Origin: a virus | Virus record (IMG/VR): IMGVR_UViG_3300032249_000925 | Location: 35,363-99,362 of that record | DNA: 64,000 bases | Strand: one strand, 5' to 3' | Part shown: one piece after another, positions 8,917-39,509 of the stretch | Position numbering within the stretch: the stretch's first letter is position 1 | Layout: the number at the start of each line of letters is the position of its first letter | Notes under the pieces: model-generated | Databases searched by the model: none | The model's input: the letters and a program-made list of their open reading frames with translations, nothing else | Told to the model about the DNA's origin: nothing | Translations under genes and position numbers: made by a program

Positions 8917-9008
8917 AGAGAGTTGGCTGAGCGGCCGAAGGCAGCGGTTTGCTAAACCGTCGTATGCAGCGATGTGTACCGTGGGTTCGAATCCCACACT
9001 CTCTGCCA
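8917..9008 (+). tRNA. tRNA-Ser(GCT)
   Basis: AGAGAGT/ACTCTCT acceptor stem, anticodon loop TTGCTAA, long variable arm, GGTTCGAATCC, encoded CCA. Confidence 0.95.
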
Positions 9009-13719: not shown

Positions 13720-13790
13720 ACGGGTAGCTACTTGGCAATACTGTCAAGTAGCACCATACCAAAGCCTAGTTTATCTGGGCTTTGGTATGG

Positions 13791-14084
13791 TTGTATGAAA
13801 CAAGCCGAAAGGCGCGCTGGACGTGGGTTCGACTCCCACCTGGTCCACCAAAAGCACATATAGTTGTCCTAGATGAAAGAAACCTCTGAGGGCTCTAGCG
13901 GGGATTATTGTGTGCTTCTGATGGGCCAGTCATGGTTTCGACAGTGTGATAAGTATGCAAGTGGACAACTCGGTAGGCGATCTCCGCAAAAGAAGCAAAC
14001 TATATAAATGCCAACGATGAGGTATTTGCTCTAGCCGCTTAAGCTAGTGCCGAGGTATGCCCCCGCCTTGTAACCAAGGGGGGC
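13791..14084 (+). ncRNA. ssrA: Circularly permuted (two-piece) tmRNA
   Basis: Acceptor piece with T-arm GTGGGTTCGACTCCCAC and CTGGTCCACCA ends at 13850; hairpin intervening segment 13851-13922; coding piece starts GGGCCAG..GGTTTCGAC at 13923; G3-U70 pair; tag ORF 14010-14042 = ANDEVFALAA-stop. Outer boundaries approximate. Confidence 0.93.
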
Positions 14085-14089
14085 TTTTT
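14059..14089 (+). terminator. Terminator at the tmRNA coding-piece 3' end
   Basis: GCCCCC(G)CCTTG/CAAGGGGGGC stem plus T tract. Confidence 0.75.
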
Positions 14090-14103
14090 ATCGGATAAAT
14101 CTT

Positions 14104-14736
14104 ATGGCTAACAAAAAACTTGATAGTGATGATTTTATGCTGGACACAGGTCTTAGCCGAGGATTTCGTAAATCTGGTTCTGCTATCTACGAGTTCTACC
14201 TAAGTGGAACTATTACAGGACCTGAAGACTATATTGAGTGGTTTAACACTATTCGTAGTGCAGGACCACAAGACGAAGTAAAAATTTATATTAACAGCAG
14301 CGGCGGCGATTTAAATTGTGCACTACAATTTATGCGTGTACTTAGTGAAACACAGGCCACTGTTATTTGTAGTGTTGAAGGCAGTTGCATGAGTGCTGCT
14401 ACAATGATCTTTTTATGTGCTGATGTATTTGAGGTTACTCCACACAGTTTATTTATGTTTCATAACTACAGCGGCGGCATTTTTGGCAAAGGCGGCGAGA
14501 TCTATGATCAAGCTGTTTTTGAACGTGAGTGGTCTAAGCAGTTTTTACAGCATATTTACAAAAATTTCTTAACCAGCAAAGAAATTGATAGTTTACTAGA
14601 AAACAAAGACTTGTGGCTACACAGCGAAGAAGTAAGTAATCGTGTAGAAAAATTGTGTGAAGCTAGAACTAAGGAACAAGAAGATGCTCGTAACGCCCTG
14701 TCAGGGGATTTGCAAGATGAATCCAACAACGAATAA
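14104..14736 (+). CDS. clpP: ClpP-like serine protease
   Basis: FYLSGTI, IYINSSGG, GSCMSAATMIF (catalytic Ser), FMFH (catalytic His). Confidence 0.88.
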   Translation: MANKKLDSDDFMLDTGLSRGFRKSGSAIYEFYLSGTITGPEDYIEWFNTIRSAGPQDEVKIYINSSGGDLNCALQFMRVLSETQATVICSVEGSCMSAATMIFLCADVFEVTPHSLFMFHNYSGGIFGKGGEIYDQAVFEREWSKQFLQHIYKNFLTSKEIDSLLENKDLWLHSEEVSNRVEKLCEARTKEQEDARNALSGDLQDESNNE

Positions 14737-16043: not shown

Positions 16044-16120
<77 letters not shown>

Positions 16121-16124
16121 GAAA

Positions 16125-16200
16125 CTGCCCATAGCTCAGTGGATAGAGCAACAGCCTTCTAAGCTGTTGGTCGAAGGTTCGATTCCTTCTGGGCAGGCCA
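16125..16200 (+). tRNA. tRNA-Arg(TCT)
   Basis: Cloverleaf, loop CTTCTAA, encoded CCA. Confidence 0.95.
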
Positions 16201-16206
16201 AACAAT

Positions 16207-16281
16207 TCCTTAGTAGCTCAGCGGTAGAGCAGCAGACTGTTAATCTGTTGGTCCGTGGTTCGATCCCACGCTGGGGAGCCA
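16207..16281 (+). tRNA. tRNA-Asn(GTT)
   Basis: Cloverleaf, loop CTGTTAA, encoded CCA. Confidence 0.95.
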
Positions 16282-16288
16282 AATTTAT

Positions 16289-16362
16289 GCCGGTGTAGTA
16301 TAATGGCAGTGCGGCGGTCTCCAAAACCGCTAGTGGTGGTTCGATTCCATCCACCGGTGCCA
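16289..16362 (+). tRNA. tRNA-Trp(CCA)
   Basis: Cloverleaf, loop CTCCAAA, encoded CCA. Confidence 0.95.
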
Positions 16363-34978: not shown

Positions 34979-36940
34979 ATGGTTAGCACAAGAGCACAAG
35001 TAATTACACGTCGTACATATAATCGTCCTACTAGTGACGACGGAAAACAATTTGAAACATGGGAAGAAACAGTTGCCCGTGTAATTGATCATCAAGCATG
35101 GCTATGGGAACGTGCAGTTAATCGTGAATTAAATGATCAAGAATATGCAGAACTTTATGACTTAGAACAGCTAATGTTAGATCGCAAAGTATTAATGAGC
35201 GGTCGCACGCTTTGGCTTGGCGGAACTAAAGTAGCTAAAACACGAGAAGCAAGTCAGTTTAATTGCAGCTTTACTCATGTAGAAACTGTATATGATGTAG
35301 TAGATGTGCTATGGTTATTGCTACAAGGTTGCGGTGTAGGATTTAAACCTATTGTAGGTACTCTTAATGGATTTTCAAATCCAATTAAAAATATCAAAAC
35401 AATTCGTAGTCAGCGCACTGAAAAAGGCGGCAATGAATACAATACAGAAACTTGGGATGCAACAACTAAAACTTGGACACTGCAAATTGGTGACAGTGCA
35501 GAAGCTTGGGCTAAAAGTATTGGTAAGCTATTAGCAGGCAAATATCCAGCAGAAACACTAGTTTTAGATTTTTCGCAGTTGCGTCCAGCAGGAGAAAGGT
35601 TAAAAGGTTATGGTTGGATTTCTTCAGGCGATACTGCAATTAGTGCTGCATATACTAGCATTGCCAATATTCTTAATGGTAGGGCTGACAGTCTACTTAC
35701 TAGGATGGATATTCTGGACATTGTTAATCATCTGGGCACTATTCTTAGCAGCCGCCGAAGTGCTGAAATCGCTCTTTTCGACTATGGTCAGCCTGAGTGG
35801 GAAGAGTTTGCAGTAGCTAAAAAAGACTGGTGGCTACACAACAATGAACATCGTACTCAAAGTAATAATAGCCTAGTGTTTAAAGAAAAACCACTGCGCG
35901 AAGACTTAGAAAAGATTTTTCACCTAATGCAAGAAGCAGGCGGTAGTGAGCCAGGTTTTATTAATGAAGTAGAAGCTCTTAGACGAGCACCTTGGTTTAA
36001 AGGCGCTAATCCTTGTGTAGAAATTTTACTGGGCAATAAAAGTTTTTGCAACTTAACAGAAACTGACTTAGCTAAATTTCGTGGCGACAATGCAGGACTA
36101 CACGCTGCTATTAGATTAGCTGCTAGAGCCAACTATCGTCAAACTTGTGTTGACTTACAAGATGGTATCTTACAAGAATCTTGGCATTTAAACAACTACT
36201 TTTTACGATTGTGCGGTGTAGGTTTAACAGGCATTGCAATGCGTCCAGATATGGGCAGTTACGATTACGAATACTTAAAGCGCACAGCAACAGCTGCTGC
36301 TGTAGGTATGGCACAAGAACTAGGTTTACCAGCTCCAAAAAATGTAACTTGTATTAAGCCTAGTGGTACACTAAGCAAAATTATGGATACTACTGAAGGA
36401 GTGCACAAGCCACTAGGCAAGTACATTTTTAACAATGTACAGTTTAGTAAACACGATCCAGTAGTAGACAAACTGCGTGAAGCAAACTATCATGTTATTA
36501 ATCATCCAGTAGACGATAGCGGCGTGTTAGTAACTTTTCCAGTATGTTGGGATGGTGTAGTGTTTGATAAAGTTGATAGTAAAGAAATTAACTTAGAAAG
36601 TGCTGTTACGCAATTAGAACGATATAAATTGCTACAAACTAGCTGGAATCAACAAAATACTAGTGTAACTATTAGCTATGATCCTAGTGAAATTAGTGAT
36701 ATTATTGATTGGTTACTAGATAACTGGGATTGTTATGTAGGTGTTAGTTTTATTTACAGAACTGATCCTACTAAAACAGCAAAAGATCTAGGCTACCTAT
36801 ATCTTCCACAAGAAGTAGTAGATGAACGTACTTACAGAGACTATATAGCACAACTTAAACCAGTTACGCTAGATAATGCTAATAGTTTTGATGAAATTAT
36901 AGATCAAGAGTGTGCAACCGGCGCATGTCCAATTAGGTAA
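34979..36940 (+). CDS. nrdJ: Class II adenosylcobalamin-dependent ribonucleotide reductase
   Basis: GRTLW, FNCSF, RRSAEI, NPCVEI, FCNL, KPSGT, C-terminal CATGACPIR; no beta-subunit gene nearby. Confidence 0.93.
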   Translation: MVSTRAQVITRRTYNRPTSDDGKQFETWEETVARVIDHQAWLWERAVNRELNDQEYAELYDLEQLMLDRKVLMSGRTLWLGGTKVAKTREASQFNCSFTHVETVYDVVDVLWLLLQGCGVGFKPIVGTLNGFSNPIKNIKTIRSQRTEKGGNEYNTETWDATTKTWTLQIGDSAEAWAKSIGKLLAGKYPAETLVLDFSQLRPAGERLKGYGWISSGDTAISAAYTSIANILNGRADSLLTRMDILDIVNHLGTILSSRRSAEIALFDYGQPEWEEFAVAKKDWWLHNNEHRTQSNNSLVFKEKPLREDLEKIFHLMQEAGGSEPGFINEVEALRRAPWFKGANPCVEILLGNKSFCNLTETDLAKFRGDNAGLHAAIRLAARANYRQTCVDLQDGILQESWHLNNYFLRLCGVGLTGIAMRPDMGSYDYEYLKRTATAAAVGMAQELGLPAPKNVTCIKPSGTLSKIMDTTEGVHKPLGKYIFNNVQFSKHDPVVDKLREANYHVINHPVDDSGVLVTFPVCWDGVVFDKVDSKEINLESAVTQLERYKLLQTSWNQQNTSVTISYDPSEISDIIDWLLDNWDCYVGVSFIYRTDPTKTAKDLGYLYLPQEVVDERTYRDYIAQLKPVTLDNANSFDEIIDQECATGACPIR

Positions 36941-37146: not shown

Positions 37147-37184
37147 AAAAAAAAGCCCCTAGTACTTCTACTAGGGGCTTTTTT
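37145..37184. terminator. Bidirectional terminator at the plus/minus convergence point
   Basis: A tract-GCCCCTAGTA/TACTAGGGGC-T tract. Confidence 0.9.
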
Positions 37185-37185
37185 A

Positions 37186-37878
37186 TTAGTCGTTATAGGC
37201 TAAGATAATTTGCTTACACATTCTGCTACGTACAATGTCTTCGTCTAGGAATCTAACAATTTCCACACCAGAGATACCTTCAAGTCGTTTAACGCTATCT
37301 TCTAATCCACTGTCTGGAATATCTACTTGTTTAGGATCACCACTTAGGATAATTTTACAGCCTTTGCCAATTCTGCTTAACAACATTTTTAGTTCAGTTT
37401 TGGTTAAATTTTGTGCTTCATCGACTAGTACAATTGCATACTCAAAGCTACTACCTCGCATAAACCCAATAGGTCTAGGATCAATGTCTTTGTTTTTAAC
37501 AGCATACTCGTAGAATCCACGACCTAGTGTTTTTGTAAATACTGAGTCAAATGGCTGTAGGTAGGGCGCATATTTATCGTCAATTTTACCTGGTAAAAAT
37601 CCCATGCCACGACCTGTTTCTACATTTGGTCGGGTAAGAATAATTTTTGAAATTTTACGGTGAAATAATAATCCTGCTGCATAACTAGCGGCTACATAAG
37701 TTTTACCGGTACCAGCACTACCTATGCCAAAAATAATATCGTTTTGTTTAATTGCTTCTAAATAAATGCTTTGAATTTCATTTAGTGGTTTAATTTCCTT
37801 AAAGCCATTTTCAATTGGATTTTTATTTTCAAGAAGTATAGCTTTACGAACTTGTTTTCCAGATGGTTGATTACCCAT
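37186..37878 (-). CDS. phoH: PhoH-family ATPase
   Basis: GSAGTGKT, TRP, GFLPG, MRG, DEAQN, GDPKQ.D, DIVRS. Confidence 0.95.
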   Translation of the reverse strand: MGNQPSGKQVRKAILLENKNPIENGFKEIKPLNEIQSIYLEAIKQNDIIFGIGSAGTGKTYVAASYAAGLLFHRKISKIILTRPNVETGRGMGFLPGKIDDKYAPYLQPFDSVFTKTLGRGFYEYAVKNKDIDPRPIGFMRGSSFEYAIVLVDEAQNLTKTELKMLLSRIGKGCKIILSGDPKQVDIPDSGLEDSVKRLEGISGVEIVRFLDEDIVRSRMCKQIILAYND

Positions 37879-37895: not shown

Positions 37896-38471
37896 TTAAT
37901 GAAGAAACTTTGTATACTTATCGCTACGTGTGTTAATTACATCCTTTACATGATGACGGTTAATATCACAAGCACTACGACTACCGTAAAGTGCCACCTT
38001 AGATTTTAAACAAAGTTTTTCTACATTATCAAACCACCTATTAGGATCACACCAACTTGTTAATTTACAAGCTCTACGCTCGTGATTAACACCACCTAAT
38101 CCACCATTATAGGCAGCATCTGCAAATGCATATGCTTCACGTTTGTCTAACACATACTTATCAAAAGTTTGATAATTATCGCGCATCATTAGTGTTAATG
38201 CACGAATTTGTAGGTCTGGTCGAGTATAAACTACTTGCCACGACAATTCTGATAGCTCTTTAGGATACTTATGTTTTAGTTCTGATAGAGCATCAAACCT
38301 AATAGATCCATCTGCTTTAAAAGCCCTGGTAATCTGACCAAGTCCTGCACCTTCTTCACGATCGCTGCGCAGGCGACTTTGTGAATTCCAGCACTTACTG
38401 TGCTTAAGTGATATGCAAGACTCGTGCTCTATTAGACTAGCAAGGTAAGCTGCTTTGGGTGTGTAGGCCAA
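37896..38471 (-). CDS. Lytic transglycosylase (SLT-type endolysin), catalytic part
   Basis: IEHES, GAGLGQIT, AAYNGGLG; TTG start lacks a well-spaced RBS, so it is probably reached by a -1 frameshift from the upstream ORF. Confidence 0.85.
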   Translation of the reverse strand: MAYTPKAAYLASLIEHESCISLKHSKCWNSQSRLRSDREEGAGLGQITRAFKADGSIRFDALSELKHKYPKELSELSWQVVYTRPDLQIRALTLMMRDNYQTFDKYVLDKREAYAFADAAYNGGLGGVNHERRACKLTSWCDPNRWFDNVEKLCLKSKVALYGSRSACDINRHHVKDVINTRSDKYTKFLH

Positions 38472-38851
38472 ACCTTGTCTTTTTCTTGCTGTAGGGTAGG
38501 CAAGTGTTCATATGCTTGTTTAGGAATATAAGTTTCTGGTGATTGTGCGTAGACTTGTGAGCCAAAAAGACTTAACAAACCGTAGATAATAATACACAAT
38601 CCTATAAATGCTAAACCTGCGCCAGTGGCAGTTTCACGTGCTTTTTTAAGCAGTGATTCCATGTCTGCATAATCAAATAGTGCACGACGTGCAAGATGTG
38701 CAAACCACACAGCTACAATTGGCGTAGCTAATTTAGCTAAAAATGGGATAGTCATGTTACCACCATTAGGGTCGCTGATAAAAAGATACAGCATAACAAT
38801 AAGGGTGCCGCCAATCATAAAAATGTTGCGAAAACGAAAATGTTCTTTCAT
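38432..38851 (-). CDS. Holin-like three-TM protein carrying the apparent N-terminus of the transglycosylase
   Basis: Three hydrophobic segments, then AQSPETYIPKQAYEHLPTL..VWPTHP; lies between spanins and the lysin. Confidence 0.7.
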   Translation of the reverse strand: MKEHFRFRNIFMIGGTLIVMLYLFISDPNGGNMTIPFLAKLATPIVAVWFAHLARRALFDYADMESLLKKARETATGAGLAFIGLCIIIYGLLSLFGSQVYAQSPETYIPKQAYEHLPTLQQEKDKVWPTHPKQLTLLV

Positions 38852-39141
38852 GGATTGTCCAAATTGGAAAGTTTGCGAATAGCCTCTATGCCAACCGCTT
38901 GTTTAAGTGCACACGTGCCGTATAGCCTAATAATTTGAATATAATGTTGAGCTATATCGTCGTATGTGGAATTTTGTGGTAGTAGTGGCAATAGTTCGCA
39001 ACCAATTAATAGTTCTGGTTCTACTACTACACGTTTTTGTGTTGCTGCAATCGCTGGTGTTTCTACAGATTTTTTAGAAAAAATTCCACATCCAGCAAGC
39101 ATTGCAAGAAGGCAAAAACTAAATAATATTTGTGTTTTCAT
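38848..39141 (-). CDS. o-spanin (Rz1-like lipoprotein)
   Basis: Lipobox LAGC; Pro/Cys-rich; lysis cassette position. Confidence 0.8.
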   Translation of the reverse strand: MKTQILFSFCLLAMLAGCGIFSKKSVETPAIAATQKRVVVEPELLIGCELLPLLPQNSTYDDIAQHYIQIIRLYGTCALKQAVGIEAIRKLSNLDNP

Positions 39142-39509
39142 TTTTCGTTGGCTCGCATAATTGCCTCGCCGATACTATCTAAAAATGCTTGTGATGGTAA
39201 ACATTCACCATTTTTTACAATAGTAACCTGCCGCAGTTTTAACTGTTCGCTAATACTAATTATTTGTTTGTTTAATTTTTGTTGTTTTTGTGTTGCTTGT
39301 TGTTGAGCAGCGGTTAAACTACCCTCTAACTGTGTAATTTTTTGTTGTAATTCTAGTTCATATTGTTGCTGAGCTTGTACACACTCTAAGCGTGCTTGTT
39401 CATAGCCGCGAGTATAAATTTTATTGTAGATAAAAAATCCAGCTATAGCTAAGCCTACGCACACAAATATGCTAATTATTATTTTTATATCATTAAGCAT
39501 TTTGTTCAC
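39138..39509 (-). CDS. i-spanin (Rz-like)
   Basis: N-terminal TM followed by a coiled coil. Confidence 0.8.
   Translation of the reverse strand: MNKMLNDIKIIISIFVCVGLAIAGFFIYNKIYTRGYEQARLECVQAQQQYELELQQKITQLEGSLTAAQQQATQKQQKLNKQIISISEQLKLRQVTIVKNGECLPSQAFLDSIGEAIMRANEK

Follow-up and report, generated by a model that had tools for sequence, protein, structure and literature searches.

The 64,000-nucleotide stretch of viral DNA analysed here (hereafter the window) spans positions 35,363 to 99,362 of IMG/VR record IMGVR_UViG_3300032249_000925, a complete 99,362-bp record with direct terminal repeats that derives from an uncultured freshwater phage. Its minus strand carries a closely packed lysis cassette, in which the genes for an i-spanin and an o-spanin are followed by an open reading frame (ORF) for a protein with three transmembrane (TM) helices (ORF1), by the reading frame of a wall-degrading enzyme, and then by phoH (Table 1). 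The enzyme is encoded in the -1 frame relative to ORF1, and a slippery heptamer, C CCA AAG, is located in the short overlap of the two frames. We propose, with a probability of roughly 0.87, that the enzyme is expressed by real, conserved programmed -1 ribosomal frameshifting in the lysis cassette. The same frame-broken arrangement is found in more than 50 relatives.

The 0-frame product of ORF1 consists of a three-TM module (hydrophobic helices at about residues 10-25, 35-54, and 77-97), 31 residues that belong to the enzyme domain, and a nonconserved tail of six residues before the TAA stop codon. In a tandem slip at the heptamer, pairing changes from CCA to CCC in the P site and from AAG to AAA in the A site. 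The 0 frame ends six codons past the heptamer, and the -1 frame is open from position 38507 to a stop codon at 37898-37896, such that a tandem -1 slip yields a product of 133 + 185 = 318 amino acids (aa). Downstream of the slip, the -1 frame encodes a catalytic E-x-E-S motif (38429-38418), G-L-G-Q, and A-Y-N-G-G. A preliminary description made from the letters of this DNA had already reported the three-TM ORF, the -1 enzyme frame, the heptamer at 38459-38453, and the stop six codons on, all of which proved correct when read again; it had also predicted a fusion of about 318 aa with the junction that we obtain. The long ORFs of the window contain 0.0054 in-phase X XXY YYZ heptamers per codon, and CCCAAAG is found in phase only here. 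This argument against chance is modest when drawn from a single genome, and it is conservation among homologues that is decisive.

Table 1. Features of the lysis cassette and its surroundings (window coordinates; all on the minus strand)
Feature	Position	Strand	Annotation
ORF1, 0-frame product, 139 aa	38432..38851	-	ATG at 38851, TAA at 38434-38432
Slippery heptamer C CCA AAG	38453..38459	-	In phase with ORF1 (codons CAC CCA AAG)
N-terminal ~31 enzyme residues, Q103-K133, in ORF1 frame before the slip	38453..38545	-	AlphaFold2 model and alignment
-1-frame enzyme part, 185 residues and stop	37896..38453	-	PHROG 669 endolysin, E 1e-14
TTG called as enzyme start by gene callers	38469..38471	-	Probably unused
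V100-Y101-A102, signal-peptidase-I-like (-3,-1) motif directly after the third TM helix	38546..38554	-	Predicted cut before Q103
o-spanin lipoprotein, 97 aa, lipobox ending in Cys	38848..39141	-	PHROG 456 Rz-like spanin, E 9e-7
i-spanin, 123 aa, N-terminal TM helix, coiled coil	39138..39509	-	PHROG Rz-like spanin families, E 1e-5
PhoH-like ATPase gene	37186..37878	-	Pfam PhoH, E 3.5e-63; last gene of the transcription unit
Terminator-like hairpin, strong, 16 bp, GC-rich, followed by a T run	37149-37184	-	Terminator scan; directly after phoH

Homologues of the enzyme are numerous (2275 were found), and DNA of relatives was collected from IMG/VR, JGI/ENA metagenomes, and GTDB genomes and classified by the frame of the N-terminal stretch relative to the catalytic motif. 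This procedure identified 51 nonredundant frame-broken loci from IMG/VR and metagenome assemblies (55-94% identical, 33-45% GC), in every one of which the enzyme lies in the -1 frame; no +1 locus was found. An in-phase X XXY YYZ heptamer is present within the short overlap in all 51. Its sequence is CCCAAAG in 35 loci, CCCAAAA in 10, CCCTTTT in three, and CCCTTTC, AAAAAAG, or CCCAAAC in one each; the CCC TTT type was read in the JGI/ENA loci L179, L180, L196, and L217. Other heptamers are suggested by the -1 frame of several proteins known from Logan only (P0087, P0101, P0103, and P0111). Frame-broken loci left over from this set show the same heptamer behaviour. The heptamer is nearly always 30 nt before the first Glu codon of E-x-E-S, and in 50 of the 51 loci it belongs to the classes V_VV.A_AA.R or H_HH.U_UU.Y, which are highly efficient in Escherichia coli. 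By comparison, of about 73 in-frame homologues a single one carries any in-phase heptamer within the equivalent 54 nt, at a different position. A check of the homologue alignment thus finds the frame break and the heptamer kept together in all frame-broken homologues, whereas the in-frame relatives are without the heptamer and agree in sequence with the predicted trans-frame junction.

Codon usage at the site provides further evidence. His is encoded by CAC in 47 of 47 cases and Pro by CCA in 46 of 46, although the background frequencies of these codons elsewhere in the same genes are 0.44 and 0.40, respectively. In two loci whose heptamer is shifted 6 nt downstream, CAT and CCT appear at those codons, and the wobble positions that flank the site vary freely. 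Codon choice at the site is therefore fixed beyond the needs of the protein. Both halves of the gene are under purifying selection: among the frame-broken loci, the ratio of nonsynonymous to synonymous substitution rates (dN/dS) amounts to 0.13 in the enzyme part and 0.16 in the ORF1 part; dS exceeds 2 and is saturated.

The enzyme is a divergent subfamily of SLT/GH23-type (family-1) lytic transglycosylases. It has no Pfam match at E <= 0.1 and none in NCBIfam, and PF01464 (SLT) is unmatched in the genome. Indeed, Pfam, NCBIfam, and PDB sequence searches returned nothing useful for either the TM module or the enzyme, and a PDB sequence match to M13 peptidases (E 0.009) was judged to be noise. 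However, the alignment columns that are invariant among homologues (E, E-S, G..Q, and Y-N-G-G) reproduce the GH23-type catalytic Glu followed by Ser and the G-L-x-Q and A-Y-N-x-G motifs. We modelled an in-frame homologue, P0092 (319 aa), by using AlphaFold2 with 31 fused relatives (predicted local distance difference test score, pLDDT, 87). In VIA-align comparisons, this model matches MltF (Z 17.2, root-mean-square deviation 2.5 A over 172 residues), Slt70 (Z 15.3), and MltE (Z 14.7), and the match covers model residues 102-319, with residue 133 as the equivalent of the slip position. Because the match spans these residues, the SLT fold starts right after the third TM helix (TM3), some 30 residues before the slip. 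A helix at model residues 111-127 has a pLDDT above 90, and its equivalent in the window is encoded at the 3' end of ORF1; the Q103-K133 stretch aligns to the N terminus of mature enzymes of the signal-peptide type. These results bear out the earlier suggestion that the end of ORF1 reads as the N-terminal part of an SLT lysin.

Relatives of the window locus exhibit two further architectures. In 41 nonredundant loci, the three-TM module is fused to the enzyme in a single ORF. About 32 others have a separate enzyme gene that encodes a short signal sequence, and the gene ahead of it is usually a stand-alone three-TM gene that stops shortly after the third helix. ORF1 is homologous to such a stand-alone gene (E 1e-16), whose existence shows that the three-TM module has a function of its own. 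Residues 1-133 of ORF1 are 70% identical to residues 1-133 of P0092, and the alignment stops exactly at the Lys of the heptamer. An especially close comparison is that of the in-frame locus L247 with its frame-broken sister L249: L247 has one extra A in the A run, and its protein passes straight through the predicted junction. The in-frame fusions, which occur in metagenomic phages and in prophages of the Betaproteobacteria Undibacterium, Ideonella, Accumulibacter, and Paucimonas (isolate genomes among those of Undibacterium and Ideonella), have the same modules, order, and junction sequence as the predicted trans-frame product. They differ from it in being a single ORF with an obligatory 1:1 ratio of modules, without a slippery heptamer, and in being mostly of high GC content. 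In a phylogenetic tree, the frame-broken state occupies a deep clade (SH-aLRT 99) of 50 frame-broken loci, with nine signal-peptide-type loci and one in-frame locus nested; only the frame-broken label is relied on, as the fused and signal-peptide labels are crude (based on upstream open-frame length) and some high-GC signal-peptide forms are mislabelled.

The scan of GTDB genomes found in-frame relatives only, in Betaproteobacteria, plus one frame-broken copy that is near-identical to ORF1 of the window. This copy, L266, is on a 13-kb contig (CAYGVZ010000051.1) in a metagenome-assembled genome of Pirellulales (Planctomycetes); the contig is probably of phage origin and mis-binned, and hence gives no evidence of the host.

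Among cultured phages there are no close relatives: blastn returned short fragments only, and tblastn matches are at most 57% identical and all of the separate-gene type. A homologous enzyme is present at 41-57% identity in Pseudomonas phage YuA (gp61/gp62), Stenotrophomonas phage Sonora (013/014), Bordetella phage PHB04, and Morganella phage Mecenats66. Sonora 013/014 is a pair annotated as "holin" and "SAR endolysin transglycosylase". In these cultured pairs of a holin and a secreted or SAR endolysin, spanin genes and a small three-TM gene likewise lie directly upstream of the enzyme, in the order seen here, and the enzyme carries at its N terminus a hydrophobic export segment and an A-x-A motif. 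However, they are two genes, each with its own start, whereas in the window the enzyme has lost its start and signal and would borrow TM3 of ORF1 through the frameshift. The closest cultured homologue (57% identity) is a signal-peptide-type enzyme of Bacillus phage vB_BspM_AgentSmith (L260; MW749006.1, 125447-129989). In that record, two coding sequences annotated as "putative lytic murein transglycosylase" flank a "putative endonuclease" coding sequence that overlaps both, and tblastn matches at two places; the arrangement may reflect insertion of a homing endonuclease or mis-annotation.

In the mechanism that we propose, most ribosomes translating ORF1 would stop six codons past the heptamer and release the 139-aa three-TM membrane protein. 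At C CCA AAG, with tRNA-Pro and tRNA-Lys occupying the P and A sites, respectively, some would move back by one base and continue in the -1 frame to produce the 318-aa protein. In this protein, TM3 would lead directly into a complete periplasmic enzyme with the SLT fold (N-in, C-out). The frameshift would thereby set the ratio of membrane module to enzyme, and it would be the sole route to an intact, exported enzyme. We infer that it is the ribosome that slips, at a low to moderate efficiency. The likely outcome is an abundant membrane protein and a scarce enzyme, as such sites without stimulators are known to be inefficient.

Phage tail chaperones, capsids, dnaX, and insertion sequence (IS) elements offer well-known examples of programmed -1 frameshifting. 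In lambda G/GT, ribosomes slip at G GGA AAG without an obligatory RNA stimulator, giving a short product and a C-terminally extended product in a fixed ratio. In that system, and by extension in T7 gene 10A/10B and P2 E/E', an X XXA AAG-type slip is placed near the end of the short ORF, as it is in the window. However, lambda G/GT serves virion assembly and the site described here serves lysis. Also, unlike in lambda G/GT, what the slip adds here is an entire enzyme, the fold of which starts ahead of the slip site, and the unextended product is an integral membrane protein. The dnaX tau/gamma and IS3/IS911 orfAB sites follow the same bacterial heptamer rules (A-site Lys AAG to AAA), but they rely on an upstream Shine-Dalgarno (SD) sequence, a downstream hairpin or pseudoknot, or both, and no such element is conserved here. 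A literature search that combined frameshifting with endolysin or holin yielded only genome notes on tail-chaperone frameshifts, and no case from a lysis cassette was found. The arrangement would represent classical -1 programmed frameshifting in a new functional setting.

Several observations weigh against this interpretation or limit it. General rules on frameshift heptamers are available (PMC4066793, PMC5009743), and C_CC.A_AA.G was the most efficient heptamer tested in E. coli, reaching 54% with a pseudoknot; without a stimulator, the heptamer yielded about 0.3%, and a few percent at most in a good context (PMC4066793). The yield of the frameshift may thus be very low. A search downstream of the site detected no conserved hairpin or pseudoknot (mean fold z score -0.46; RNAalifold predicts 0 pairs for 32 sequences), in agreement with the preliminary description, which could identify no clear stimulatory structure. 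Nor was a consistently placed upstream SD-like element seen, as judged by eye and not by a systematic count. Locus L203 has a weak heptamer, C CCA AAC. The trans-frame protein is a prediction from sequence, and the identity of ORF1 as a holin is unproven: its TM module has no match in Pfam, NCBIfam, or PHROG, and hhalign comparisons with the holins of Sonora, Mecenats66, and YuA and with a gene of ECML-606-1 gave probabilities of 0.3, 3, 20, and 47%, respectively. The small gene of ECML-606-1 is unannotated, and its equivalents in Sonora, Mecenats66, and YuA are annotated as holin. Because no conserved stimulator was detected, the efficiency is probably low, like that of lambda G/GT.

A stimulator could also act through the nascent chain. 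Insertion of TM3 by Sec/YidC might pull on the chain while the slip codons are being decoded, and in this way promote the -1 slip. We regard this idea as unlikely, although it has a precedent in the alphavirus 6K/TF protein, where a TM helix upstream of the slip, at a spacing of 45 residues, stimulates -1 frameshifting as it inserts into the membrane; in the window, the end of TM3 is about 35 residues upstream of the slip codons. The alphavirus system differs in being eukaryotic and in also requiring an RNA hairpin. If TM3 did act in this manner, which we doubt, it would be at once the third helix of the holin-like protein, a cleavable signal peptide of the enzyme, and a frameshift stimulator. 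Synthesis of the endolysin would then be tied to the state of the membrane and translocon, and the 6K/TF mechanism would have its first bacterial or phage example.

Three explanations compete with programmed frameshifting. In one, the locus comprises two ordinary genes, and translation starting at TTG 38471, or re-initiating after ORF1, produces a 191-aa cytoplasmic endolysin that is released by an ORF1 holin. This is what gene callers imply by choosing the NTG start, and about 100 of the 120 best matches are 189-193 aa; moreover, the ORF1 stop is just 37 nt downstream of the TTG. The TTG (38471-38469) is the only ATG, GTG, or TTG of the -1 frame ahead of the catalytic motif. An ATG, GTG, or TTG is present at this position in 27 of the 51 relatives, but in the remaining 24 the position is CTG or blocked by a stop, and the NTG itself is forced by a conserved Trp codon (TGG) and the wobble base in front of it. 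In 18 of the 51 loci, the enzyme frame has no ATG, GTG, or TTG at all before the catalytic Glu, and in about nine it opens just one codon before the heptamer. No usable SD sequence precedes the TTG in this phage, as the AAGG is only 1 nt before it and hence too close. The preliminary description's doubt about this start was therefore justified: it is not conserved, is a wobble by-product of the Trp codon, and lacks a usable SD sequence. Its product would be without about 30 residues, the first SLT helix, and any export signal, and it would leave the conservation and covariation of the heptamer and the fixed CAC and CCA codons unexplained. We consider two genes very unlikely. As a separate observation on annotation, about 100 of the 120 database proteins P0001-P0120 are annotated as 189-193 aa and start at an NTG four codons before Pro-Lys, and several entries begin with an internal Leu immediately ahead of the catalytic motif. 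These annotations are a systematic mis-annotation of the frameshifted gene.

Alternatively, the frames could be joined before translation, if RNA polymerase slipped at the C3A3 run to produce mRNAs with one extra base and both parts in a single frame. The in-frame locus L247, which differs by exactly one A in the run, and L085, which has an A6 run, are in keeping with this. However, productive transcriptional slippage in bacteria and phages requires longer homopolymers, of about seven or more, and the runs here are just 3 + 3. Also, conservation extends to an X XXY YYZ pattern in phase with the codons, CCC TTT variants included, which is the signature of tRNA re-pairing, and polymerase slippage is thus extremely unlikely. 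Finally, the frame break could stem from faulty assembly, or from a recent deletion of 1 nt that left a pseudogene, given that a single base separates the frame-broken from the in-frame form and that homopolymer indels are common errors. The preliminary description had recommended a search for a missing base. Logan contigs from four runs in three studies cross the junction with substitutions and without an indel, and the same break is found in 51 diverged loci from many samples. Downstream of the break, the low dN/dS with saturated dS is not that of a dead gene, and the complete genome offers no endolysin candidate besides this gene. We give an artefact or a dead gene a negligible chance of being the explanation.

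Searches of the complete 99-kb genome for eight other endolysin Pfam families found none, although for two of the eight, GH19 and GH108, the search was uninformative, as the controls matched no genome; among the families searched, the SLT enzyme is the only endolysin candidate. Its export can be considered from the (A/V)-x-A motif directly after TM3. Among 126 family members of all three architectures, position -1 is A, S, or G in 125 and position -3 is A or V in 123. The motif is preceded by Gly, Ser, or Pro and coincides with the cleavage region of signal-peptide-type relatives. Because the motif ends the signal sequence of the separate-gene enzyme, TM3 of the fused and frameshifted forms resembles an internal signal peptide. 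The enzyme may therefore be cut free into the periplasm after A102 by signal peptidase I, giving a predicted mature enzyme of about 216 aa. Alternatively, it may stay anchored, or TM3 may behave like a signal-arrest-release (SAR) domain. The preliminary description had called the fusion "membrane-tethered"; this reading may be wrong, since the conserved motif suggests cleavage and release.

ORF1 fits a small integral membrane protein beside an endolysin and spanins, with its three TM helices and its ATGA-linked gene order. The module is presumably a holin or a membrane protein that is needed independently, and it is by position, size, and topology only that ORF1 is called a holin.

The spanin genes are separate, with neither embedded in the other. 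That of the i-spanin is the first gene of the lysis cassette, and its end overlaps the start of the o-spanin gene, whose TGA stop in turn overlaps the ATG of ORF1 (ATGA). The ATGA start/stop overlaps at 38848-38851 and 39138-39141 on the minus strand connect the i-spanin, o-spanin, and ORF1 genes and suggest translational coupling along the cassette. Besides its match to PHROG 456, the o-spanin has a weak Pfam match to LysC. The hairpin downstream of phoH is probably the terminator of the transcription unit to which the lysis genes belong. Elsewhere in the window, ARAGORN identifies a tmRNA-like gene at 13758-14133 on the plus strand (tag peptide ANDEVFALAA). Genes for tRNA-Ser (at 8917) and for tRNA-Met, -Arg, -Asn, and -Trp (at 16044-16362) are near it, and no tRNA-Lys gene was found within the window.

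If the frameshift is confirmed, it would represent a new way for phages to set the ratio of a holin-like protein to a wall-degrading enzyme, and a route by which an enzyme is exported by borrowing the last helix of a membrane protein. It would also explain hundreds of database entries that are called as truncated proteins of 189-193 aa with odd starts. Finally, the separate genes, in-frame fusions, and frameshift fusions of this family would constitute a natural three-state series for questions of stoichiometry and export.

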